Positions 3,590 to 34,417 of a stretch of 64,000 nucleotides of DNA are shown here, in pieces. The DNA comes from an uncultured Lachnospiraceae bacterium (lineage in GTDB: Bacteria > Bacillota > Clostridia > Lachnospirales > Lachnospiraceae): the NCBI GenBank assembly GCA_947626915.1, contig CANQUA010000008.1:135-64134 (forward strand), in the 5' to 3' direction. Under the pieces are notes generated by a model that did not search any database, had not been told where the DNA came from, and saw only the letters and a list, made by a program, of their open reading frames with translations. Position 1 is the first letter of the stretch. Every line of letters starts with the position of its first letter. The translations under genes and the position numbers were made by a program.

Positions 3590-4492
3590 ACATCCTGAAA
3601 GCCCTCTTAAAACAGCTTCTGGGCGCCAGGTATGAGCGCGCCGGAAAGAGCCTGATGGTTTATCCTGTATGTTTCCATCCACGCTGCGGGAATTGAAACC
3701 GAGATTGCTGCTTCGGTTCTCTTTCTGACGGCGGCGGCCGTTTCGGCGGGGATCCTGTGGCAGGCCTTTCATTCTCCGGGGAACGCAGACAGCATGACCG
3801 GGCTGTTTCTGCTGCCGTTTGCGGGCAGAAACATGACGTTTTCCATCGTCCTGGCCTTTACCGGCTACACGCTGGTCACAAAAACGTTTCCTGTATTGAC
3901 GCTGTTCTTTGCGGTCCATGAATGGAGCGCGGCGCAGATCGCCGTGTCACTGCTCTGCGCCTGTCATGGCTGTTTCCTGACCGCCGCCGCTCTGCCGTTT
4001 CTGTTGGGGCAGTTCGACGGGCTCCCCGTCCTGCCGCTGGGATTCGCCATCCTGTGCCTGAATACGCCGGTCTGCATATTGCTGTCCTGCGACCCGGCGC
4101 TGGAGCAGGCGGTCCGGATGCTGCCCGGACAGGCCCTCCGCTTTTGTCCCCGCTATTGCGTCTTCCTTTCTTTCGTCAACGCGGCGGTGAGCGGCGTGTA
4201 TCTGGCGAGCTGGCAATGGCGGTACGGCGGCGTGGACGGTCCGGAAATCGCCGCCGCGCTGCTGATCGCTCTGCAGAGCGCGATCCTGTCTGTCCTGCTG
4301 GAATGGTTTTGCCCGATCCGCAGCTGGAAGATCGAAAGCGATCTGTGGCAACACCCGCGCAAATACGTTGTGCCCGTCGTCATGCTGCTCCTCGCAGGGC
4401 TGATCGGTATCTGGCCCGTAAGCCTATGGATCCTGTTCTGCGCCGTTTTAGCAGAAATTTTAATCTTACCAAAAATCGCAAGGAGGATTTGA
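3586..4492 (+). pseudogene. ABC-type permease, frameshifted near 3660
   Basis: ATG 3586 overlaps the ATPase stop; MNILKALLKQLLGARYERAGKSL shifts frame into ILYVSIHAAG... and joins the 3794-4492 ORF. Confidence 0.65.
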
Positions 4493-4496
4493 ACCC

Positions 4497-4718
4497 ATGA
4501 AAAATACGAAACGCTGCCCAAAGTGCAATTCGCAGAATATTGTCCGCGTCCCCGACAACCAGAACCGCCACGCAAGCGGCAACAACATTTATACCTCAAC
4601 TTTTACGCTGATGAAAAAAATCCCCGTAATACGCTATGTCTGCTGCGACTGCGGCTATGTGGAGAACTGGGTCGAAACCCAGAGCGGACGCATGGAGATC
4701 AAACGCACTTTCGGCTAA
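4497..4718 (+). CDS. Small zinc-ribbon protein
   Basis: CPKC and CCDCGY motifs; AGGAGG RBS. Confidence 0.75.
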   Translation: MKNTKRCPKCNSQNIVRVPDNQNRHASGNNIYTSTFTLMKKIPVIRYVCCDCGYVENWVETQSGRMEIKRTFG

Positions 4719-4763
4719 AATCCCGGCAAAACCGGTTTTCATTCAAAAACCCCCTTCGCGCTG

Positions 4764-4793
4764 TCATAGCGGACCTGCCGCCGCTCATATAGT
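4764..4793 (+). promoter_or_regulatory. sigmaE-like (mother-cell) promoter ahead of the small ORF and LSR1
   Basis: TCATAGC-15 bp-CATATAGT; ATA to CATA spacing 17 bp. Confidence 0.55.
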
Positions 4794-4825
4794 ATACAGC
4801 CATTCTTTGAAAGGAGGCTGCACAT

Positions 4826-4984
4826 TTGAAAAGCAGCGAAAAGCCGGCGGCCGCAGGCGTATGCAAAAGTGTTTTCAAAAGCGGCGAAAACACGATTTCA
4901 GGAGAACAATTCACCCAAATGTGGATCCAGCTGATCAATCAGATTGAAAAGGACAGAGCTCTCCATGCTGCCCGGAAAGAATGA
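4826..4984 (+). CDS. 52-aa small protein not in the ORF track; candidate recombination directionality factor for LSR1
   Basis: AAGGAGG RBS then TTG; MKSSEKPAAAGVCKSVFKSGENTISGEQFTQMWIQLINQIEKDRALHAARKE*; function inferred from position. Confidence 0.6.
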   Translation: MKSSEKPAAAGVCKSVFKSGENTISGEQFTQMWIQLINQIEKDRALHAARKE

Positions 4985-5028
4985 CAAGCCTTTCTCCGCA
5001 GGCCCCTGCCTGCGCGGAAAAGGCTTGT
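4984..5028 (+). other. Stem-loop between the small ORF and LSR1
   Basis: ACAAGCCTTT...GCAGG / CCTGC...AAAGGCTTGT imperfect inverted repeat. Confidence 0.55.
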
Positions 5029-5051
5029 TCCGTCTCTGAGGAGGGCCAAAC

Positions 5052-6605
5052 ATGAAAGCCGCCATTTATTGCCGCTTATCCGAAGAAGACCGAAACAAGC
5101 AGTCCGAAACCGACGACAGCTGCAGCATACAAAATCAGAAGGCCATGCTGCTGCAATACACGATGGAACAGGGGTGGGAACTTTACAACATTTACAGCGA
5201 CGACGACTACACCGGCTCCGACCGGCGGCGTCCGGAGTTTAACCGCCTGCTGCGGGACGCAGAGCAGCGCAAATTTGATATTGTCCTCTGCAAGACCCAG
5301 TCGCGCTTTACCCGCGAATTGGAATTGGTGGAAAAATACATCCATGGGCTGTTCCCAATATGGGGGATCCGCTTCGTCAGCATTGTCGACAACGCGGATA
5401 CCGCAAATAAGGGAAACAAAAAGTCCCGTCAGATCAACGGGCTCGTCAACGAATGGTACCTGGAGGATATGTCTGAGAATATCCGAAGCGTCCTAACAAA
5501 CCGGCGGAAGAACGGTTTTCACATCGGCGCATTCGCCCTTTACGGTTACAGGAAAGACCCCGAACAAAAGGGACACCTGATCGTCGACGAGGAAGCCGCG
5601 GCCGTCGTCCGCGAGGTATTTGCCCTTTTCGCCCAGGGTTACGGAAAAACCGCGATCGCCCGTATGCTCAACGACCGGGGCATACCCAATCCCACGGAAT
5701 ATAAACGCCTGCACGGGCTGCGCTACCGGCAGCCGAAGATGAAAAACAGCACCCTATGGAACTATTCCGCCATTTCGGATATGCTGACCAACGAAATCTA
5801 CATCGGCAATCTGGTCCAGGGCAAATACGGCAGCGTGTCCTACAAAACAAAGCAAAACAAGCCGCGCCCGAGAAGCGAATGGTACATCGTCGAGGGGACG
5901 CACGAGCCGGTCATTGACCGGGAACTGTGGGACAGGGTACAGGCACTGGCCGCCCAGAAAGCCAGGCCTTTTGCCGGCGGCGCCATCGGATTATTCGCCG
6001 GAAAAGCCCGCTGCGCAAACTGCGGTTATGTCATGCGCTCTTCCAAAACCCACAATAAACATTACCTGCAGTGCCCCAGCCGCCATCTGTCGAAAGACGC
6101 CTGCACCGGCTCTTTCATCTCTGTGGAAAAACTGGAACGGCTCGTCCTGGACGAGCTGAACCGTCTGGCAGCGGAGTATCTGGACCAGGACGCGCTCGAA
6201 CAGAACATCCGGCTCTGCGACAATCTGCAGGACCGGAAAGCCCGCCTGCTCTCCGATCTGGCGGCCTATCAGAAAAAGATCGCGGAGTATTCCAAAGGCA
6301 TACGGGAGCTTTACATGGATAAGGTCAGGGGGATCCTGTCCGAAAGCGATTATGCAGCGCTGTCAAAGGATCTTGCCGCGGAACGCAGCCGCCTGGAACG
6401 CGTCGCCGCCGACGCAGAAACGCGGCTGTCCGAACTCGAAGCCGGCATTGCGGCGGGCGGCCATCGCCGCGAGCGAATCGAATCCTATACCCGCCTGGAG
6501 CATCTCACCCGGGAGATCGTGGAAACGCTGATCGGTCACATATCGGTCGGCAGGCGTATCCCCGGCACCAGGGACGTCCCGATCGAGATCCACTGGAACT
6601 TTTGA
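5052..6605 (+). CDS. Large serine recombinase LSR1 (resolvase, recombinase, zinc ribbon, coiled coil; SpoIVCA/CisA-like)
   Basis: YCRLS catalytic motif, DDDYTG, KTQSRFTR, THEPVI, CANCG...C zinc ribbon; uninterrupted 517 aa. Confidence 0.95.
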   Translation: MKAAIYCRLSEEDRNKQSETDDSCSIQNQKAMLLQYTMEQGWELYNIYSDDDYTGSDRRRPEFNRLLRDAEQRKFDIVLCKTQSRFTRELELVEKYIHGLFPIWGIRFVSIVDNADTANKGNKKSRQINGLVNEWYLEDMSENIRSVLTNRRKNGFHIGAFALYGYRKDPEQKGHLIVDEEAAAVVREVFALFAQGYGKTAIARMLNDRGIPNPTEYKRLHGLRYRQPKMKNSTLWNYSAISDMLTNEIYIGNLVQGKYGSVSYKTKQNKPRPRSEWYIVEGTHEPVIDRELWDRVQALAAQKARPFAGGAIGLFAGKARCANCGYVMRSSKTHNKHYLQCPSRHLSKDACTGSFISVEKLERLVLDELNRLAAEYLDQDALEQNIRLCDNLQDRKARLLSDLAAYQKKIAEYSKGIRELYMDKVRGILSESDYAALSKDLAAERSRLERVAADAETRLSELEAGIAAGGHRRERIESYTRLEHLTREIVETLIGHISVGRRIPGTRDVPIEIHWNF

Positions 6606-7758: not shown

Positions 7759-8673
7759 ATGGACTATGTTCTCAGAACAAACGCTTTGACCAAAAGCTAT
7801 AAAGGGGCCAAAGCGCTGGCCGGTCTCACGATGAATGTGCCCAAGGGAGCGATCTACGGGTTCGTGGGGAAAAACGGCGCCGGCAAGACGACGCTGATCC
7901 GCCTGATCTGCGGCCTGCAGGAGCCGGATTCGGGAGACTACACGCTGTACGGCAGAAAAAACGCGGAAAAGGACATTACAAGCTCCCGCCGCCGGATGGG
8001 CGCGGTCGTGGAAACGCCCGCCATTTATCTGGATCTGACGGCGGAGGAAAATCTCAGGCAGCAGTACCGGATCCTGGGACTGCCCTCGTTTGACGGGCTT
8101 TCCGACATTTTAAAACTGGTGGGGCTGGATCAAACCGGGAAAAAGAAAGCGAAAAACTTTTCCCTGGGGATGCGGCAGCGGCTCGGGATCGCCGTCGCTC
8201 TCGCCGGGGATCCGGACTTTCTGGTTCTGGACGAACCCGCCAACGGACTCGACCCCCAGGGGATCATCGAGATCCGGGAACTGATCCTGGAGCTGAACCG
8301 CAGGCAGCAGATCACAGTCCTGATCTCCAGCCATATCCTGGACGAACTGTCAAAGTTCGCGACCCATTACGGTTTCATCGATGGCGGGCGCATGGTAAAA
8401 GAAATCAGCGCCGAAGAACTGGAGGCCGCCTGCCGGAAATGCGTCCGCATGGAGGTCAGCAGCACGAAAGCCCTCGCCCGCGTCCTCGACAAAATGAAGA
8501 TCGACTATACGATCCTGAGCGGCACGACCGCCGACGTCTACGCGAAAGTAAACATCTCCCGCCTGAGCAGCGCGCTTGCAGGGGAGAACTGCGAACTGAT
8601 CTCGGCGCAGGAACGGGATGAAAGTCTGGAAAGCTATTATGTGAGTCTGGTGGGAGGCGGAACGAATGAATAA
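7759..8673 (+). CDS. ABC transporter ATPase (BcrA/lantibiotic-immunity-like)
   Basis: GKNGAGKT, FSLGMRQR, LVLDEPANGLD, ISSH. Confidence 0.93.
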   Translation: MDYVLRTNALTKSYKGAKALAGLTMNVPKGAIYGFVGKNGAGKTTLIRLICGLQEPDSGDYTLYGRKNAEKDITSSRRRMGAVVETPAIYLDLTAEENLRQQYRILGLPSFDGLSDILKLVGLDQTGKKKAKNFSLGMRQRLGIAVALAGDPDFLVLDEPANGLDPQGIIEIRELILELNRRQQITVLISSHILDELSKFATHYGFIDGGRMVKEISAEELEAACRKCVRMEVSSTKALARVLDKMKIDYTILSGTTADVYAKVNISRLSSALAGENCELISAQERDESLESYYVSLVGGGTNE

Positions 8674-27666: not shown

Positions 27667-28464
27667 CTACTCCAGAGCCAGATCCGACGGCAGCGCCGGA
27701 TTCGCCAGCCTCCACTCGCAGCCGTCCAGCCCGCGCTCCACCTCAGCCCAGAGCATCCAGGTCGCCATATCGTCTGTCCCGTATTCGGGGACCTCATGCG
27801 ACAATGTAACCGTGACGGTATCGTCTTCTCTGACCGCCGCCTCGATCCCGATCCTGACGGAGCCGCTGTTCACCGTCTCCACCACGATCAGCAGCGCCCG
27901 TTCCGCGAAAAATTTCTCGCCGTATTCCTCCGTCCGCAGCTCGTACGGCAGTTTTTCCGGCGAATCCGCATAGGAAACCGAGTGCCTGCGGCCGATGTAA
28001 GTCAGGCGCATCCTGCCGCGCTCTTCAAAAGGAACCGTCCCTGCCGGGGAAACGCCCTTTTCCGATCCCCAAAACTCTCCCGCCCGGAGCTTCCCCACCG
28101 TGGGTTCTTCTCTCTCCGTTTCCGGAAAACCGGCTGTCTCAGGAGCAGGGCTTTCCGCAGCTTCCGTCCCGGGATTTTCCATCATGCGTTCTTCTTCCGT
28201 TTCCGGAAAACCGGCTGTCTCAGGGGCAGGGCTTTCCGCAGCTTCCGTCCCGGGATTTTCCATCACGCGCTCTTCTCTCTCCGTTTCCGGAAAACCTGCT
28301 GTTTCACCCGCGGTACTTTCTGCCGCTTCCGTCTCAGAATTTTCCATCACACGTTCTTCTCCCTCTGCCTCCGGAAAACCGCCGGCCTCAGGCGCGGGGC
28401 CCGTCAGTTCTCCCGCCCCCAAAGCAAGCGCCGTGCACACGATCACAGCCATCTGTCTCAGCAT
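27667..28464 (-). CDS. Exported acidic repeat protein with a small C-terminal domain (PrcB-C-like)
   Basis: Signal-like MLRQMAVIVCTALALGAG, then about 3.5 copies of GFPETE.EERVMENPGTEAAESPAPET. Confidence 0.65.
   Translation of the reverse strand: MLRQMAVIVCTALALGAGELTGPAPEAGGFPEAEGEERVMENSETEAAESTAGETAGFPETEREERVMENPGTEAAESPAPETAGFPETEEERMMENPGTEAAESPAPETAGFPETEREEPTVGKLRAGEFWGSEKGVSPAGTVPFEERGRMRLTYIGRRHSVSYADSPEKLPYELRTEEYGEKFFAERALLIVVETVNSGSVRIGIEAAVREDDTVTVTLSHEVPEYGTDDMATWMLWAEVERGLDGCEWRLANPALPSDLALE
28100..28390 (-). repeat. Coding tandem repeat, 81-84 bp unit
   Basis: TCCGGAAAAC recurs at 28121, 28202, 28286 and 28370. Confidence 0.9.
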
Positions 28465-28682
28465 TTTATCCCCCCTGACAACGCTCCCGCACCGGCACGC
28501 CCGCCGTCTCCGTCTCCAATCTCCGGACCGGCTCCGGCAAATCCGCCGCATGTCCGGCCGCCGCTCCGACCTATATGCTCCCCGTAAGTATAACATATAC
28601 CGCCGCCGCAGTCCAGCTTACTTTTGCCCCTGTCGCTGCATTGTACTAAAAATACCCGTAAAATCCTTCCGCTTCCATAAAT

Positions 28683-28943
28683 TCAGTCCGCTCCTTCTTT
28701 CGCCTCTACGAACCATCTGCTCCCCTCCTGGTACAAAAAAGATTCCTGTCCCCGGATGACGACCGTGTAGCGGATCCCGCCGCCTCCCACCTTGTCCGAC
28801 GAAGCGCGGCACTTGTAGGCGATCCGGTCGATCGGGAATACCCTGCCGTTCTCCCAGCGGATCAGCCGGGGAAAGACCGTCCCGTCTGCGTCCACATCCA
28901 GATTGACGGACACATACGCTTTCCTGCACAATACGTTCTGCAC
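28683..28943 (-). CDS. 86-aa hypothetical protein divergent from the mutagenesis cassette
   Basis: GGGAGGTG RBS, GTG start, strong sigmaA promoter; ends RWFVEAK. Confidence 0.75.
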   Translation of the reverse strand: MQNVLCRKAYVSVNLDVDADGTVFPRLIRWENGRVFPIDRIAYKCRASSDKVGGGGIRYTVVIRGQESFLYQEGSRWFVEAKEGAD

Positions 28944-28973
28944 GGCAACACCTCCCTGTCAAACCCGTCAAAG

Positions 28974-29115
28974 CACGAACATTTTTTCATGTTCCTGTTG
29001 ACACACGCGTTTTCATGTGGTAAGATGGTTTCACGAACGGGATTTCGTGTCGGCAATGTCAGTATAGCATGAACGTTTTTTCGTGTCAATAAGTTTTTAT
29101 GAAAAAATGTTCGTG
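28974..29115. promoter_or_regulatory. Four palindromic operators (CAYGAA-N6-TTCRTG) over two opposing sigmaA promoters
   Basis: Sites at 28974, 29032, 29068, 29098; plus-strand TTGACA(28998)-17-TAAGAT; minus-strand TTGACA(29089)-17-TATACT. Confidence 0.8.
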
Positions 29116-29139
29116 TCCGTCAAAAGAAAGAGGTGCCTT

Positions 29140-29556
29140 ATGCAGTTCAAAGACAGACTGAGGGAAAAACGTATGGAGGCTGATCTGACCCAGCCGGAGC
29201 TGGCAGAAAAAGCGGGCGTTACCACGCGGACGATCCAGAACTACGAGCTGGGGAACCGCAAACCGGCGAATATGGAAGTGGTTCAGAAGATCGCCGACGC
29301 GCTGCACACCACGACAGAGTATCTCCTCGGCAGCAGCGGCGTCTATGTTGTGGAAGCGCAGGAAAAGGGCGGGGCCAAAGCGGCGCGGGAGATCGACGAG
29401 CTGGTCGGGGAAGTGACCGGACTGTTTGCCGGGGGCGGACTCAGCGACGACGATCTCGAGGGAGCGATGAAGGCCCTGTACGACGCCTACTGGATCGCCA
29501 AGGAGAAGAACCGGAAATACACGCCGAAGAAATATTTGAAGGAAGCCGGAGAATGA
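29140..29556 (+). CDS. XRE-family (ImmR-like) repressor
   Basis: LTQPELAEKAGVTTRTIQNYELGNRKP HTH; GAGGTG RBS before ATG 29140. Confidence 0.92.
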   Translation: MQFKDRLREKRMEADLTQPELAEKAGVTTRTIQNYELGNRKPANMEVVQKIADALHTTTEYLLGSSGVYVVEAQEKGGAKAAREIDELVGEVTGLFAGGGLSDDDLEGAMKALYDAYWIAKEKNRKYTPKKYLKEAGE

Positions 29557-30113
29557 CTCCTCTCCACTCTTCGGATGCCGCTGTCCCGATTGGAGGTGGA
29601 AGGATGCGCGCAGAACAGCTTGCCCGTGTGGGCGGCGGGCTTGTCAGGCGGTGCGGTACGAGAGATCCCTTTGCGATCGCCGCAGACATCGGAGCGGAGG
29701 TTATGTTCCGCGACGATTTCGGCCTGCTGAAAGGGATGTACCGGGTGATCAAACGGAACCGCTTTATCTTTATCAACAGCCGGCTCCCGGAGCCGATGCA
29801 GAGGATCGTCTGCGCCCACGAGCTGGGACACGATCAGCTCCACCGCAGCCTGGCCCAGAACGACGCCCTGCATGAATTTATGCTCTATGATATGAGGACG
29901 AAGCCGGAATACGAGGCGAATATCGTCGCGTCGGAGATCCTGCTGGACAATGATGAGCTGCTGGAACATCTCTACCGTGACCGCTACTCCGCCGAGCAGA
30001 TCGCCCGCGCCATGCATACGGACATCAATCTGGTCGCCCTGAAGATTGCGCACCTCAACGAGCTGGGATACGACCTCAGACCGCTTGAACACCGGAGCGA
30101 TTTCTTAAAATAG
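29553..30113 (+). CDS. ImmA/IrrE-family metallo-endopeptidase
   Basis: CAHELGH (HExxH) and EYEANIVA; overlaps the XRE gene. Confidence 0.92.
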   Translation: MTPLHSSDAAVPIGGGRMRAEQLARVGGGLVRRCGTRDPFAIAADIGAEVMFRDDFGLLKGMYRVIKRNRFIFINSRLPEPMQRIVCAHELGHDQLHRSLAQNDALHEFMLYDMRTKPEYEANIVASEILLDNDELLEHLYRDRYSAEQIARAMHTDINLVALKIAHLNELGYDLRPLEHRSDFLK

Positions 30114-30119
30114 AAATAT

Positions 30120-30166
30120 GACGCGGAGGCTGTCAGGGAGATAAGACGCGGAAGCTGTCAGGGAGA
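30120..30166 (+). repeat. 22-bp direct repeat (1 mismatch) before the polymerase gene
   Basis: GACGCGGA(G/A)GCTGTCAGGGAGA at 30120 and 30145. Confidence 0.85.
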
Positions 30167-30182
30167 AAGGAGGACCCGCGGC

Positions 30183-31688
30183 ATGGAAAAACGGACCTAT
30201 ATCGCGATCGATCTGAAATCATTTTACGCCTCGGTAGAGTGCCGGGAACGCGGACTGGACCCGCTGGACACCAATCTCGTGGTCGCAGACGAGAGCCGGA
30301 CGGACAAAACCATCTGCCTCGCGGTGACGCCGCCTCTCAAAAGCTACGGCATACCCGGGCGGGCGCGGCTGTTTGAGGTGAAGCAGCGGGTCCGGGAAGC
30401 GAACGCCGGACGCAGGCACGACGCGCCGGGGCACCGCCTGACGGGTTCGTCGCATTTTTATTCCGAGCTGGCGTCAAAGCCCGAACTGGCGATCGACTTC
30501 ATTATCGCGCCGCCGCGCATGGCTCACTACATGGCATACAGCACCCGGATCTACGGCATCTATATGAAATACGTCGCCCCGGAAGACATTATCGTTTATT
30601 CCATCGACGAGGTTTTCATGGATGTTACCAATTACCTGAGCGCCTGCCGGCTCACTCCCCGGGATCTGGCGAGGAAGATCATCCTTGACGTGATGGACGA
30701 CACGCGCATCACCGCGGCGGCGGGGATCGGCACGAACCTCTATCTGGCCAAGATCGCCATGGACATCGTGGCGAAACACGTTCCCGCCGACCAATACGGA
30801 GTGCGGATCGCGGAGCTGGACGAGATGAGCTACCGCCGCATCCTCTGGACGCACCAGCCCCTGACCGACTTCTGGAGGCTGGGTCCCGGATACGCCAGGA
30901 AACTGGAAGAAAACGGGATGTTCACGATGGGCGATGTGGCGCGATGTTCCGTCACGGACGAAGACCTGCTCTACCGGCTGTTCGGGAAGAACGCGGAGCT
31001 GCTGATCGACCACGCGTGGGGATGGGAGCCCTGCACCGTCGAAGCGGTCAAGGCATACCGTCCCGAGTCAAACAGTCTGGGATCGGGGCAGGTGCTCCAT
31101 ACCCCCTATGAGGCGGAGAAAGCCAGGCTCGTCCTCCGTGAAATGGCGGACCTGCTTGCGCTGGAGCTGGTCGACAAAAGACTGGTCACCGACCAGATCG
31201 TCGTTACAGTCGGATACGACGTGGAGAACCTCAAGGATCCCAGGCGGAGCCGGGCCTATCACGGGGAAATCGTCACAGACCGCTACGGGCGCAGGATCCC
31301 GAAACACTCCCACGGCACCGTCAGCCTCGGCAGGCCCACCTCGTCCGCGAAACAGATCCTGGAGGCGGCATCGGAACTGTTTGACCGCATCACCGACCGG
31401 GACCTCCTGATCCGCAGGCTGAACATCACGGCGAACCACGTGGTCAGCGAGACCTCGGTCAGACAGGAACCGCAATATGAGCAGCTCGATCTTTTCACCG
31501 ACTACGCCGCCCTGGAAGCCGGGCGGGAACGGGAGCAGGCGGAGCGGGAACGGGAAAAGAAAATGCAGCAGACGATGCTGGCCATCAAGAAAAAATTCGG
31601 GAAAAACGCGATCCTCAAAGGCATGAACCTGGAAGAGGGCGCCACGGCGCGCGACCGCAATTCGCAGATCGGAGGTCACAAGGCATGA
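30183..31688 (+). CDS. Y-family DNA polymerase (UmuC/DinB-like)
   Basis: AIDLKSFYASVE, YSIDEVF, GIGTNLYLAKIA. Confidence 0.93.
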   Translation: MEKRTYIAIDLKSFYASVECRERGLDPLDTNLVVADESRTDKTICLAVTPPLKSYGIPGRARLFEVKQRVREANAGRRHDAPGHRLTGSSHFYSELASKPELAIDFIIAPPRMAHYMAYSTRIYGIYMKYVAPEDIIVYSIDEVFMDVTNYLSACRLTPRDLARKIILDVMDDTRITAAAGIGTNLYLAKIAMDIVAKHVPADQYGVRIAELDEMSYRRILWTHQPLTDFWRLGPGYARKLEENGMFTMGDVARCSVTDEDLLYRLFGKNAELLIDHAWGWEPCTVEAVKAYRPESNSLGSGQVLHTPYEAEKARLVLREMADLLALELVDKRLVTDQIVVTVGYDVENLKDPRRSRAYHGEIVTDRYGRRIPKHSHGTVSLGRPTSSAKQILEAASELFDRITDRDLLIRRLNITANHVVSETSVRQEPQYEQLDLFTDYAALEAGREREQAEREREKKMQQTMLAIKKKFGKNAILKGMNLEEGATARDRNSQIGGHKA

Positions 31689-32107
31689 AGGGACCTTATG
31701 ACGATATCATCCATCTCCCGCACCATGTTTCGGACAAACGGCCGCAGATGCCGATGCAGGACCGAGCGGCCCAGTTCTCGCCGTTTGCCGCCCTGACCGG
31801 CTACAGCGAAGCGGTTGCGGAAACCGCGCGTCTTACCGATGAAAAAATGGAACTTGACGAAACGGAACAGGCGGTCCTTGACAGGAAGCAGCGTATTCTT
31901 ATGGACGCCCTGTCGGAGCATCCGGCGATAACGGTGACGTACTTCCAGAAAGACGAACGGAAGGCCGGCGGCGCATACCGGACCGTCAGCGGAAAGCTGA
32001 AAAAGATCGACGAATTTGAACGCACGCTCATTCTGACAAACGGCGAGCAGATCCGAACCGGCGATATCTGCGATATTGAGAGCGAATTGTTTCAGGGACT
32101 GGAATAA
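31685..32107 (+). CDS. YolD-like accessory protein
   Basis: RAAQFSPFAALTGY motif; directly coupled to the polymerase gene. Confidence 0.8.
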   Translation: MKGPYDDIIHLPHHVSDKRPQMPMQDRAAQFSPFAALTGYSEAVAETARLTDEKMELDETEQAVLDRKQRILMDALSEHPAITVTYFQKDERKAGGAYRTVSGKLKKIDEFERTLILTNGEQIRTGDICDIESELFQGLE

Positions 32108-32125
32108 GACAGGAGGAATCGATTT

Positions 32126-33190
32126 ATGCCGCTGGAAATCATACGGAACGATATCACGAAAATGAAGGTGGACGCGATTGTGAACGCCGCCAACCAAACC
32201 CTGCTGGGAGGCGGCGGGGTCGACGGGGCCATCCATGACGCCGCGGGACCGAAGCTTCTGGCCGAGTGCCGGAAACTGGGCGGCTGTGAAACCGGCAGCG
32301 CAAAGCTCACCGGCGCGTACCGTCTGCCCTGCCGGTATGTGATCCACGCCGTCGGGCCCGTCTGGCGCGGAGGCGGCCACGGAGAGCGCGACCAGCTGAT
32401 TTCCTGCTACCGCACCTCTCTCGCGCTTGCCAAACAAAAAAGGTGCAAAACCGTGGCGTTTCCCCTGATCTCCTCCGGCGCCTACGGCTATCCGAAGGAT
32501 AAAGCCCTGAAGGTCGCCATCGATACGATCAGCGATTTCCTTTTCGACAACGAGATGACCGTCTATATCGTGATCTTCGATAAGGCCGCCTATCAGATCA
32601 GCGAAAAGCTGTTCAAAGATATTGCCGAGTACATCGACGATCACTATGCGGCGGAACATTTCGACCTCTACCGGAGGCAGTCGCAGACCCTGCTCCCCGA
32701 CGAATACGGAAAGCGTGCCGCCGGCACACTTTCTGCATGGAAATACGAGACGGCGGACGGTTTTTCCGAAAACGCGGCGCCGCCCGCGCCCCTTGCAAAG
32801 GCCGTTCGGAAAGCGCCCGCCGCCTCACTGGATGAAGCGGTCGGCATGATCGACGAGAGTTTCTCCGAGATGCTTCTCCGGAAGATCGACGAACACGGCA
32901 TCACAGACGTCCAGTGCTACAAGAAAGCGAACGTGGACCGAAAGCTGTTCTCCAAAATACGGAGCGACAAACTCTACAAACCGAGCAAGCCCACGGTCCT
33001 GGCTTTTGCGATCGCCCTCGAACTCCCGCTCAGCGAGACGCGGGAGTTGCTGATGAAAGCAGGGTTCGCCCTCTCCCACAGCAACAAGTTTGACATTATC
33101 GTCGAGTATTTTATCAGCCGCGGAAACTACAATATTTTTGAGATCAATGAGGCGCTGTTCGCTTTTGATCAGAGCCTTCTGGGGGTATGA
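32126..33190 (+). CDS. Macrodomain (O-acetyl-ADP-ribose deacetylase-like) fused to an XRE-like HTH domain
   Basis: DAIVNAAN..LLGGGGVDGAIH, AFPLISSGAYG; C-terminal CYKKANVDRKLFSKIR...TVLAFAIAL. Confidence 0.88.
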   Translation: MPLEIIRNDITKMKVDAIVNAANQTLLGGGGVDGAIHDAAGPKLLAECRKLGGCETGSAKLTGAYRLPCRYVIHAVGPVWRGGGHGERDQLISCYRTSLALAKQKRCKTVAFPLISSGAYGYPKDKALKVAIDTISDFLFDNEMTVYIVIFDKAAYQISEKLFKDIAEYIDDHYAAEHFDLYRRQSQTLLPDEYGKRAAGTLSAWKYETADGFSENAAPPAPLAKAVRKAPAASLDEAVGMIDESFSEMLLRKIDEHGITDVQCYKKANVDRKLFSKIRSDKLYKPSKPTVLAFAIALELPLSETRELLMKAGFALSHSNKFDIIVEYFISRGNYNIFEINEALFAFDQSLLGV

Positions 33191-33226
33191 GCGATTCCCC
33201 GGAGGTCCCGCCCGCGGCCCCTGTCC

Positions 33227-34417
33227 CTATTTCAGCTTCTCCAGCAGGGAATATCCGATGGTTCCCTCCGGCATCGCCGTTCCGAAATTATCCGCGACGG
33301 TGGCCCCTATGACCGCAAAGGTATCCGCATCCGGCAGCTTCCCGTGCCCTTCCATAGACGGAGAATAGGCCAGAAACGGCACCATCTCTTTTGTATGGTC
33401 GGTCCCCGTATGAGTCGGGTCGTTGCCGTGGTCCGCCGTGATGATCAGCAGATCGTCCGCGTGCAGCCTGGGAAGCAGCTCCCCCAGCTTCACGTCGAAG
33501 CGCTCCAGCTCCTGTCCGTAACCGATCGGGTCCCTCCGATGTCCCCACAGGGCGTCGAAATCCACCAGGTTCACGAAGCAGAGACCGCGGAACTCCTTGT
33601 CCGCCAGTTCAATGGTCTGTTCCATGCCGTGGACGCTGCTTTTTGATTTATAAGCTTCCGTGATGCCTTCGCCGTCAAAAATATCCCGGATCTTTCCGAC
33701 GCTGATCACATCGCAGCCATGCTCCTTCAAGGCGTCCAGCACCGTCTTCCCGTAAGGCTTCAGCGCATAGTCGTGGCGGTTGGCGGTGCGTTTAAATTCG
33801 CCCCGTTTCTTCCCCACATAGGGCCTGGCGATCACGCGCCCCACTTTCCACTCGTCGCGCATCGTCAGCTCCCTGGCGATGGCGCAGCAGCGGTAAAGCT
33901 CCTCCAGCCCGAAGGTTTCCTCGTTGCCGCAGATCTGCAGCACCGAATCCGCCGACGTATAAACGATCATATCGCCCGTGGCGATCTCGTGCTCTCCCAG
34001 TTCGTCCAGGATCTCCGTCCCGCTGGCCGCTTTGTTGCCCACGATCTTATGTCCGGTGCGGCGGCTCAGCTCATCCAGAAGCTCCTGCGGGAACCCGGTT
34101 TCCGTAAAGGTCTTAAACGGCTGCGTGATCCGCAGGCCCATCATCTCCCAGTGTCCGGTCATGGTATCTTTCCCCACGCTGGCTTCCAGCAGCCGTCCAT
34201 AATAGCCCATGGGCCTCTCCGCCGCCTTCACGTGGGTCAGGGGATGGAGATTCGCCATCCCCAGCCCGGCCAGATTCGGAATCACCAACTGTTCCGCCCG
34301 TTCGTCGATATGTCCCAGCGTATCCGTGCCGGCGTCCCCGTATTCGGCGGCGTTGGGCATGGCCCCGATCCCCAGTGAATCGATCACAATTACAAAAATG
34401 CGCTTATATGGTCCCAT
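33227..34417 (-). CDS. deoB: Phosphopentomutase
   Basis: [40 protein letters not shown]. Confidence 0.95.

Follow-up and report, generated by a model that had tools for sequence, protein, structure and literature searches.

A probable repressor- and protease-gated translesion synthesis cassette retained from a mobilizable element in an uncultured Lachnospiraceae bacterium

Introduction

Error-prone DNA polymerases drive stress-induced mutation, and in the textbook scheme LexA and RecA keep them off. On mobile elements, operons encoding such polymerases can stand under a damage-sensitive repressor supplied by the element itself, as is the case for rumAB of SXT/R391 (repressor SetR) and hdiR-umuC of Streptococcus uberis; SetR and HdiR belong to the LexA/CI type of S24 repressors, which cleave themselves upon activation by RecA. 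Here we analyse a six-gene cassette from an uncultured Lachnospiraceae bacterium (GenBank assembly GCA_947626915.1), found in a 64,000-nucleotide stretch of contig CANQUA010000008.1 (positions 135 to 64,134 of the forward strand, hereafter the window). The cassette is defined as positions 28683-33190 of the window, which begin at the stop codon of a small gene on the minus strand and end at that of the last gene on the plus strand. According to the open reading frame (ORF) list it holds six intact ORFs: a divergent gene of 86 amino acids (aa), followed by genes for an XRE repressor, an ImmA-type M78 peptidase, a UvrX-like Y-family polymerase, a YolD protein and a macrodomain protein. It differs from the SetR and HdiR systems in that its repressor lacks an S24 domain and is accompanied by the gene for a separate metallopeptidase. 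We consider it probable that this is the retained core of an element which now acts as a self-contained translesion synthesis cassette, gated by its own repressor and protease.

The closest described switch is the ImmR/ImmA pair of ICEBs1 in Bacillus subtilis, together with the phi105 repressor and its ImmA homologue, in which a short XRE protein with a C-terminal oligomerization domain is likewise followed by a single-domain COG2856/M78 peptidase of ~170 aa. That pair is autoregulated, resides on a mobile element and heads element operons, and the same is predicted for the cassette pair, which lies on mobile elements in its relatives. Unlike ImmR/ImmA, the cassette is free of excision and transfer genes, and the genes under its control would be those for the polymerase, YolD, the macrodomain protein and the small beta protein. 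Its promoters face each other instead of diverging, its operator resembles a LexA box, and the identity of its peptidase to ImmA is below detection in searches against the PDB. The DdrO/IrrE (PprI) pair of Deinococcus also sets an XRE repressor and a COG2856 peptidase over DNA repair genes independently of LexA, as the cassette pair would do. However, IrrE has an extra C-terminal GAF-like domain that the cassette peptidase lacks, the DdrO regulon is dispersed through the radiation/desiccation response motif (RDRM) whereas the cassette sites occur at their own locus only, and the genes for DdrO and IrrE lie unlinked in the chromosome and do not form a mobile cassette. A helix-turn-helix (HTH) repressor and a zinc peptidase at the operon head are found again in CapH/CapP of the cyclic-oligonucleotide-based anti-phage signalling system (CBASS) and other defence operons. 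Single-stranded DNA (ssDNA) stimulates CapP, which is DNA-damage-induced (10.1101/2022.04.27.489752). In contrast to the cassette peptidase, it has a GAF domain; its cargo is anti-phage defence, with polymerase operons not among the cargo listed (10.1101/2022.04.27.489752).

On the polymerase side, UvrX-YolD of SPbeta and YqjW-YqjX of B. subtilis, proposed as a Gram-positive Pol V counterpart, share with the cassette the polymerase subfamily, three motifs and a coupled YolD; such pairs are often on mobile elements (PMC6511836, PMC12926913). They are LexA-controlled, whereas the cassette lacks a canonical LexA box, brings a repressor-protease pair of its own and contains in addition the 86-aa gene and a gene for a macrodomain protein with an HTH-like C-terminal domain (macro-HTH). 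The polymerase-YolD pairing has been described by itself (PMC6511836, PMC12926913), and COG2856/XRE switches have been described on mobile elements, with Deinococcus repair genes and in defence operons (PMC2701414, PMC6868357, 10.1101/2022.04.27.489752). In the searchable literature, whose coverage excludes subscription journals, we found no paper that joins COG2856/XRE pairs with Y-family polymerases. What appears to be new here is that a switch of the ImmR/ImmA type has kept translesion genes as its output.

Results

Candidate operators in the switch region

The small gene and the XRE gene are separated by a 196-bp intergenic region, in which a promoter scan revealed two near-consensus sigma-A-like promoters placed face to face. 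The rightward promoter (P_R) would drive the XRE, ImmA, polymerase, YolD and macrodomain genes, and the leftward one (P_L) would drive the small gene, with predicted transcripts, beginning near 29033 (rightward, reaching 33190) and near 29054 (leftward), overlapping by ~20 nt. The P_R hexamers are kept in relatives and the P_L layout is kept in all related switch regions.

Spread over both promoters are four 18-bp sites, CAYGAAC-N4-TTTCRTG, designated O1 to O4 (Table 1). The pattern YAYGAA-N6-TTCRTG occurs at four sites in the window against 0.07 expected, and the whole 3.18-Mb genome contains these four sites only. Site positions are kept in loci L209, L214, L008, L010 and L041 (for O1, in L209, L214 and L008), with O4 inverted in all of them. 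The asymmetric core GAAC-N4-TTTC is present in 18 of the 18 sites tabulated for the window and these five relatives. Repeated operators in the promoter region of the repressor's own gene are expected of an ImmR/ImmA-type switch, and the predicted sites conform to this.

XRE as the favoured binder of the operators

Read in one orientation, each site is CGAAC-N4-TTTCG, a Firmicute LexA box with one inner base altered. No canonical Firmicute LexA box (GAAC-N4-GTTC) was found in 28400-33500. The genome encodes its own LexA, and the lexA promoter carries CGAAC-N4-GTTY boxes. Loci L014 and L016 have the same promoters, small gene and polymerase-YolD pair without XRE-ImmA, and there the canonical GAAC-N4-GTTC stands at the homologous O2 and O3. 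As the sites read TTTC with XRE-ImmA and GTTC without it, one base per site would part an XRE-type from a LexA-type promoter.

The operator also varies together with the recognition helix of XRE: CACGAA-N6-TTCGTG accompanies the helix RTIQNYE, GGAAGTT..AACTTCC accompanies RRVICSYE, and GAGAAC-N4-GTTCAC accompanies RRSIVYYE. A conserved LexA would not predict such co-variation, which therefore favours XRE as the binder. Three observations, namely scaffold conservation, co-variation and the XRE-less relatives, thus point to XRE over LexA. Since the operators are one base per site off the host LexA box, the cassette is apparently uncoupled from the host SOS response, or was never coupled to it.

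Association of the switch with translesion polymerases in Clostridia

We surveyed 399 evenly drawn Clostridia genomes for the ImmA clade with a cut-off of E <= 1e-25 and fetched all loci obtained. The clade is present in 35 genomes (38 loci), and the XRE gene lies directly before the ImmA gene in 37 of these loci, the exception (L169) beginning at a contig edge. A Y-family polymerase gene adjoins XRE-ImmA in 24/38 loci, being divergent from the same intergenic region in 16 and co-directional downstream in 8. Given one to three polymerase genes per genome, adjacency by chance would be well under 1%, and gene neighbourhoods show a real link between switch and polymerase within the family as a whole.

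The adjoining polymerases belong to two subfamilies. One is UvrX-like and is accompanied by YolD; the other is a distinct group of 410-460 aa, ~30% identical to the genome's DinB-like enzyme and with its own RecA-like motif and tail. Several of the divergent modules sit amid housekeeping genes (metF/metH, glmS, mrp).

Origin of the cassette

The closest relative of the whole unit is the metagenome contig L209, a mobilizable element with relaxase and recombinase arms. One of its strands carries genes for relaxase, NikA/MobC, YolD, polymerase, ImmA and XRE; the other carries the small gene, a gene for a second M78-like protein of 243 aa, further small genes and serine recombinases. DNA identity between the window and L209 amounts to 80.6% and is confined to 28677-31803, from the small gene's stop codon to the start part of yolD. 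The arm genes searched for (encoding the 243-aa, 86-aa and 155-aa arm proteins, NikA/MobC and relaxase) have no homologue anywhere in the window's genome; matches to serine recombinases and integrases do occur there, but away from the cassette and within other elements. Because the similarity ends at these two points and the arm genes are absent, the window would hold a trimmed element core; as judged by these comparisons, the cassette is the acquired and retained core of an integrative mobilizable element.

A close ImmA homologue is absent from 24 other genomes of the same genus. A search for an empty site in same-genus genomes showed that only deoB is kept and synteny is lost, so that neither an empty site nor insertion boundaries were drawable. 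ORF list, family and repeat searches gave no integrase, excisionase, relaxase or att-like repeats in or beside the cassette, and the window's sole recombinases lie >16 kb from it and are part of other elements.

The ratio of nonsynonymous to synonymous substitution rates (dN/dS) was calculated against L209 for the genes of XRE (0.016), ImmA (0.065), the polymerase (0.067) and YolD (0.10) and for the small gene (0.088). The five shared genes are under purifying selection and the cassette is not decaying. Equally trimmed chromosomal copies occur in other taxa, beside rpsB-tsf (L041) and beside lepA-rpsT-holA (L228-L232). Compact copies are thus known from three different chromosomal sites, and in each of them the small gene and XRE-ImmA-PolY are retained.

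Longer versions of the element have 10-16 kb of cargo between ImmA and MobC, comprising flavodoxin, SDR, GNAT, ClbS, SIMPL, GmrSD, macro-HTH and the polymerase-YolD pair. An annotated example is pMM35_01 of Vescimonas fastidiosa, where the polymerase appears as 'DNA methylase' in RefSeq. It was the sole informative annotated record in plasmid and phage collections, which otherwise returned unannotated faecal contigs.

The 243-aa protein, encoded at 7258-7989 of L209, has a divergent M78-like HExxH motif (HECAHQ / HEGSHQ). In full-length elements its gene always follows the small gene and overlaps the small gene's stop codon (L209, L213-L217, L219, L223-L227 and L193/L201/L208); the protein may serve the switch as a second protease. 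In L010, an ABC-F type ATPase gene (3947-5905, with two ABC_tran and one ABC_tran_CTD domain) is located between the ImmA and polymerase genes.

Repressor and peptidase

For the XRE gene, the start GTG 29083 was rejected for ATG 29140 behind GAGGTG, which gives a product of 138 aa. The protein consists of an N-terminal HTH_3 domain and a C-terminal domain of ~70 aa with the invariant motifs GLFAGG and AYW-AK-NKKYTPKKY. This architecture fits an XRE-family repressor with a separate C-terminal domain of putative oligomerization function. Among PDB sequences it matches the N-terminal domain of ICEBs1 ImmR best (7t8i, E 3e-6), and the C-terminal domain is shared with XRE proteins in 35/38 sampled loci. 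Cleavage sites of ImmR (F95/M96) and DdrO (L106/R107) are located within the loop that lies between their final two helices (PMC6868357). As the invariant loop G94-L-F-A-G-G99 of the cassette repressor occupies the same place, we predict by analogy that XRE is cleaved in this loop, within G94-G100 and probably close to F96-A97.

The ImmA protein probably starts at ATG 29604 behind GGAGGTG, which gives 169 aa, matching its relatives. It shows an intact HELGH at residues 89-93, a Glu-rich EYEAN downstream and a match to the phrog_87 metallo-protease. Pfam detected only the M78 domain (residues 60-153) and no GAF-like C-terminal domain within the 169-186 aa of the protein. Lacking the GAF domain of IrrE and CapP, the peptidase is therefore ImmA-like, and membership of the IrrE or CapP groups was rejected. 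It may need RecA filaments, as reported for ImmA, instead of sensing ssDNA directly.

Polymerase and YolD

The acidic residues of the polymerase are in place, in DLKSFYASVE (residue 10) and SIDEVF (residue 140), forming the triad D10, D142 and E143. The protein aligned to REV1 and Pol IV over a region that spans the SxDE motif, and its domains and acidic triad fit a catalytically competent Y-family enzyme, with activity predicted from sequence. Towards the C-terminus we found three motifs: a clamp motif QLDLF at 434, a RecA-N-terminus-like LAIKKKFGKNAI at 466 and the tail IGGHKA at 496, the latter also kept in L125, L158 and L160. Clamp motif, RecA-N-terminus-like motif and conserved tail are features of UvrX/YqjW-type enzymes (PMC6511836). 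The family has 598 confirmed relatives in species genomes, mostly of Oscillospiraceae and Lachnospiraceae. A YolD gene follows the polymerase in 79/80 loci by tblastn and in 78/80 by profile search; in the cassette, the 4-nt overlap of the two genes indicates that YolD is translationally coupled to the polymerase.

RefSeq applies the label 'DNA methylase' to this polymerase subfamily in L125 (NZ_AP023416.1) and in the plasmid matches H2, H3 and H6; this is a systematic misannotation that hides cassettes from keyword searches. On contig C20 (L002, noted at 7803-8246), the genome's second Y-family polymerase, DinB-like and of 404 aa, is encoded directly behind an ORF that resembles Tag glycosylase by eye only. 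No LexA box was found in the 300 bp upstream of it.

The 86-aa protein

Pfam and NCBIfam searches name five of the six cassette products, the exception being the 86-aa protein, for which scans against Pfam, NCBIfam and PHROG turned up no credible match even with E values of up to 5 admitted. Its family is large, with >500 clusters at 70-80% identity and 34 invariant columns that include two cysteines and KVGGGGIRYT. An AlphaFold2 (AF2) model (predicted local distance difference test, pLDDT, 82) shows seven beta strands, and no PDB relatives were found by sequence profile or by fold.

The small gene is divergent from XRE-ImmA in 19/19 metagenome places and is kept in all trimmed chromosomal copies. 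In four loci it immediately follows a polymerase gene of the second type, and in L155 a 142-aa ORF (3876-4304), at the YolD position behind a DinB-like polymerase, encodes a distant homologue (E 7e-4 among ~7000 ORFs). These contexts suggest either a polymerase accessory factor or a component of the switch. A standalone ImuB-C-like role is possible by analogy, because ImuB-C, too, forms a beta-barrel for which the PDB holds no relative (PMC12926913).

The macrodomain protein

The last product of the cassette is made up of a macrodomain (residues 1-165) and a 190-residue extension with a conserved helical C-terminal domain (residues 236-350). The loop motifs NAAN (20), GGGVDGAIH (28) and SSGxYG (116) place the macrodomain in the MacroD/YmdB type, and Foldseek matched MacroD2 and YmdB at 45-49% identity. 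The AF2 model of the whole protein was poor (pLDDT 58) and the fold search gave macrodomains only. The C-terminal 110 residues form a confident helical bundle (pLDDT 80-92) and have no Pfam or PDB sequence match. They align in register with the HTH of XRE (hhalign P = 1e-4, probability 56%) and match the same stretch of phrog_4031 as that HTH does, suggesting that this domain is probably HTH-like. It is common to at least 8000 clusters.

The macro-HTH gene is present in 6/80 polymerase loci and recurs as cargo of switch operons at varying positions. It also occurs outside these operons, as in L218 (7001-12224), where genes for ADP_ribosyl_GH and a GmrSD nuclease are its neighbours. Since its position varies and it is found elsewhere too, its link to the polymerase would amount to shared regulation in some elements, with no fixed partnership. 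Behind a switch-linked polymerase in L195 (200-1549) we noticed a 449-aa ORF that is ADP-ribosylglycohydrolase-like by eye only.

Layout of the cassette

A preliminary description of the window had called the last gene 'macrodomain-HTH' and linked the cassette to ADP-ribose turnover. The macrodomain is real, and its HTH part has moderate support only, from the helical bundle, hhalign and phrog_4031; the link to ADP-ribose turnover is loose, the gene being movable. The same description listed five co-directional, tightly spaced genes and a divergent small gene, and all six ORFs lie at the positions it gave, with short gaps (Table 1). It treated the small gene as incidental, which does not hold, as this gene is a conserved part of the core. 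Its remark that no integrase or att sites lie nearby is correct locally, but the mobile-element origin, visible in the full element L209, was missed.

Depending on the ImmA start chosen, the XRE/ImmA junction is a 4-nt overlap or a 47-nt gap, and yolD and the macrodomain gene are 18 nt apart. The ImmA-polymerase spacer measures 69 nt vs. only 11-40 nt in relatives, being lengthened by a 25-nt tandem duplication (GAAATATGACGCGGAGGCTGTCAGG / GAGATAAGACGCGGAAGCTGTCAGG) in perfect register. An attenuator or terminator in this spacer was ruled out (fold z = -0.5, the duplication having no significant fold). Searches of the six cassette proteins in Pfam and NCBIfam gave no toxin family (RelE, PIN or other), and a COG2856-Xre three-component toxin-antitoxin system (Makarova 2009) was ruled out, as the operon contains no toxin gene.

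The small gene is followed immediately downstream by a 309-aa ORF of the same strand (27667-28596, minus strand) that could receive read-through from P_L. Its product has a signal-peptide-like start and 3-4 acidic repeats of ~29 aa (ETAGFPETEREERVMENPGTEAAESPAP). Neither a Pfam match nor a counterpart in related loci was found.

Table 1. Genes and predicted regulatory features of the cassette (positions in the window)
Feature	Position	Strand	Remarks
Small gene, 86 aa, all-beta	28683..28943	-	ribosome-binding site GGAGGTG; first gene of leftward unit
XRE repressor, 138 aa	29140..29556	+	HTH_3 E 5e-13
ImmA-type M78/COG2856 metallopeptidase	29553..30113 as drawn; probable start 29604	+	PF06114 E 7.5e-16
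25-nt tandem duplication, ImmA-polymerase spacer	30113..30162	+	repeat family D3, 88% identity
UvrX/YqjW-like Y-family DNA polymerase, 501 aa	30183..31688	+	IMS + IMS_C
YolD-family protein, 140 aa	31685..32107	+	PF08863 30.3 bits vs. cut-off 27.5
MacroD/YmdB-type macrodomain with helical C-terminal domain	32126..33190	+	PF01661 E 1e-45; NF001664 206.7 bits vs. cut-off 200
Predicted rightward promoter P_R: TTGACA, 17 nt, TG-n-TAAGAT	28998..29026	+	scan 10/12, extended -10
Predicted leftward promoter P_L: TTGACA, 17 nt, TG-n-TATACT	29061..29089	-	scan 11/12
Candidate operator O1, CACGAACATTTTTTCATG	28974..28991	.	7 bp upstream of P_R -35
Candidate operator O2, CACGAACGGGATTTCGTG	29032..29049	.	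over predicted P_R start site and early P_L leader
Candidate operator O3, CATGAACGTTTTTTCGTG	29068..29085	.	fills P_L spacer
Candidate operator O4, TATGAAAAAATGTTCGTG, inverted orientation	29098..29115	.	upstream of P_L -35, within P_R leader

Discussion

The preliminary description had also proposed a translesion module with a repressor-protease switch of its own. Our comparative results speak for this: a polymerase adjoins the switch in 24/38 loci, the operators are unique in the genome, the cassette has no canonical LexA box, and LexA boxes appear in the XRE-less relatives. In the mechanism that we propose, XRE dimers or higher oligomers would occupy the four 18-bp operators across both promoters in the resting state, blocking the rightward operon as well as the leftward small gene and autoregulating the XRE gene. 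Upon a signal, the ImmA-type zinc peptidase would inactivate XRE; if it resembles ImmA, IrrE/PprI and CapP in this respect, DNA damage would most likely be the signal, perceived via RecA filaments or ssDNA. Both promoters would then fire, with the rightward genes presumably co-transcribed. The outputs would be the UvrX-like polymerase and its YolD partner, with clamp- and RecA-binding motifs, the 86-aa beta protein and a macrodomain protein that would remove ADP-ribose, and the predicted outcome is mutagenic.

Several points weigh against this interpretation. The operators are one core base off a LexA box, and the genome's own lexA boxes also have single mismatches; LexA could bind the window's sites as well, because real LexA boxes tolerate single mismatches and some subclades have canonical cores. 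The switch regions of L156, L173 and L174 hold such GAAC-N4-GTTC cores (CGAACATATGTTC, GAGAACGTAAGTTCAC), which suggests dual control or an XRE subclade that reads a true LexA-like site. No polymerase is found nearby in 14/38 clade loci, 4 of these being limited by a short contig or a contig edge. The full-length relatives (L209, L125, L223) have the switch at the head of mobilization and recombination genes, and the polymerase may therefore be cargo and not the purpose of the switch. Some COG2856 proteins work without cleavage (Rir/Crh, PMC6868357), and a part for YolD in mutagenesis has itself yet to be proven (PMC6511836).

Taken at its strongest, the resemblance to LexA boxes would make the sites weak or variant boxes of that kind and the cassette an ordinary member of the SOS regulon, with XRE-ImmA as a vestige or a second control layer. 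Each site is CGAAC-N4-GTTCG but for one core base, the genome has a LexA with imperfect boxes at its own promoter, ~14/80 related polymerase loci have LexA-type boxes directly upstream, and UvrX/YqjW-YolD pairs are under LexA in Bacillus and Staphylococcus (PMC6511836). We nevertheless regard this as unlikely. The same inner position is changed in all 18 sites of the window and its five XRE-bearing relatives, and the canonical G is seen only where XRE-ImmA is missing (L014, L016). The flanking CAY/RTG is conserved though it lies outside the LexA box, operators co-vary with the XRE helix in other subclades, the canonical box is absent from the cassette, and purifying selection on XRE and ImmA is strong.

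It is similarly improbable, in our judgement, that the switch works but answers to something other than DNA damage (cell-cell signalling, entry into a new host, phage infection, redox or zinc), or that ImmA binds XRE without cutting it. ICEBs1 ImmA is RapI-responsive as well and IrrE is zinc/redox-responsive (10.1101/2022.04.27.489752; PMC7907104), Rir blocks Crh without cleavage (PMC6868357), and transfer genes are under the switch in full elements. Yet the partner that recurs under the switch is a translesion polymerase, also where the module is purely chromosomal and has three genes, which makes a damage signal the economical reading; the peptidase retains the full HExxH and downstream Glu signature, and the window's ORF list contains no Rap-like gene nearby. 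As for the view that the cassette is inert, left over from a decayed mobile element and now functionless, both element arms are indeed missing, DNA similarity to L209 ends at the small gene's stop codon and within yolD, and the ImmA-polymerase spacer carries a duplication. Six intact reading frames with good ribosome-binding sites, dN/dS of 0.02-0.10, intact promoters and all four operators, and the same trimmed core at two other chromosomal sites in other taxa make this view very hard to believe in.

We thus retain the reading of an element core kept as a translesion cassette under its own repressor and protease. A further-reaching version, which we offer as a possibility and hold to be doubtful, is that XRE-ImmA, a switch of phage or ICE type, has turned into a portable 'mini-SOS' switch of gut Clostridia that serves at least two error-prone polymerase subfamilies, moves between mobile elements and chromosomes and can be swapped for LexA by single-base changes of the operators (GAAC-N4-TTTC vs. 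GAAC-N4-GTTC) on one conserved promoter scaffold. The 86-aa protein would then be an unrecognised polymerase partner or switch component, and macro-HTH would strip ADP-ribose from DNA or repair proteins alongside bypass.

The cassette gives regulatory context to two very common, uncharacterised families of gut metagenomes, the 86-aa beta protein and macro-HTH, and the natural LexA-box versions of the same promoter scaffold provide built-in controls. If the proposed gating is true in the ~1/11 of sampled Clostridia species concerned, induced mutagenesis in gut anaerobes would not depend solely on the host SOS response and could be acquired as a unit.

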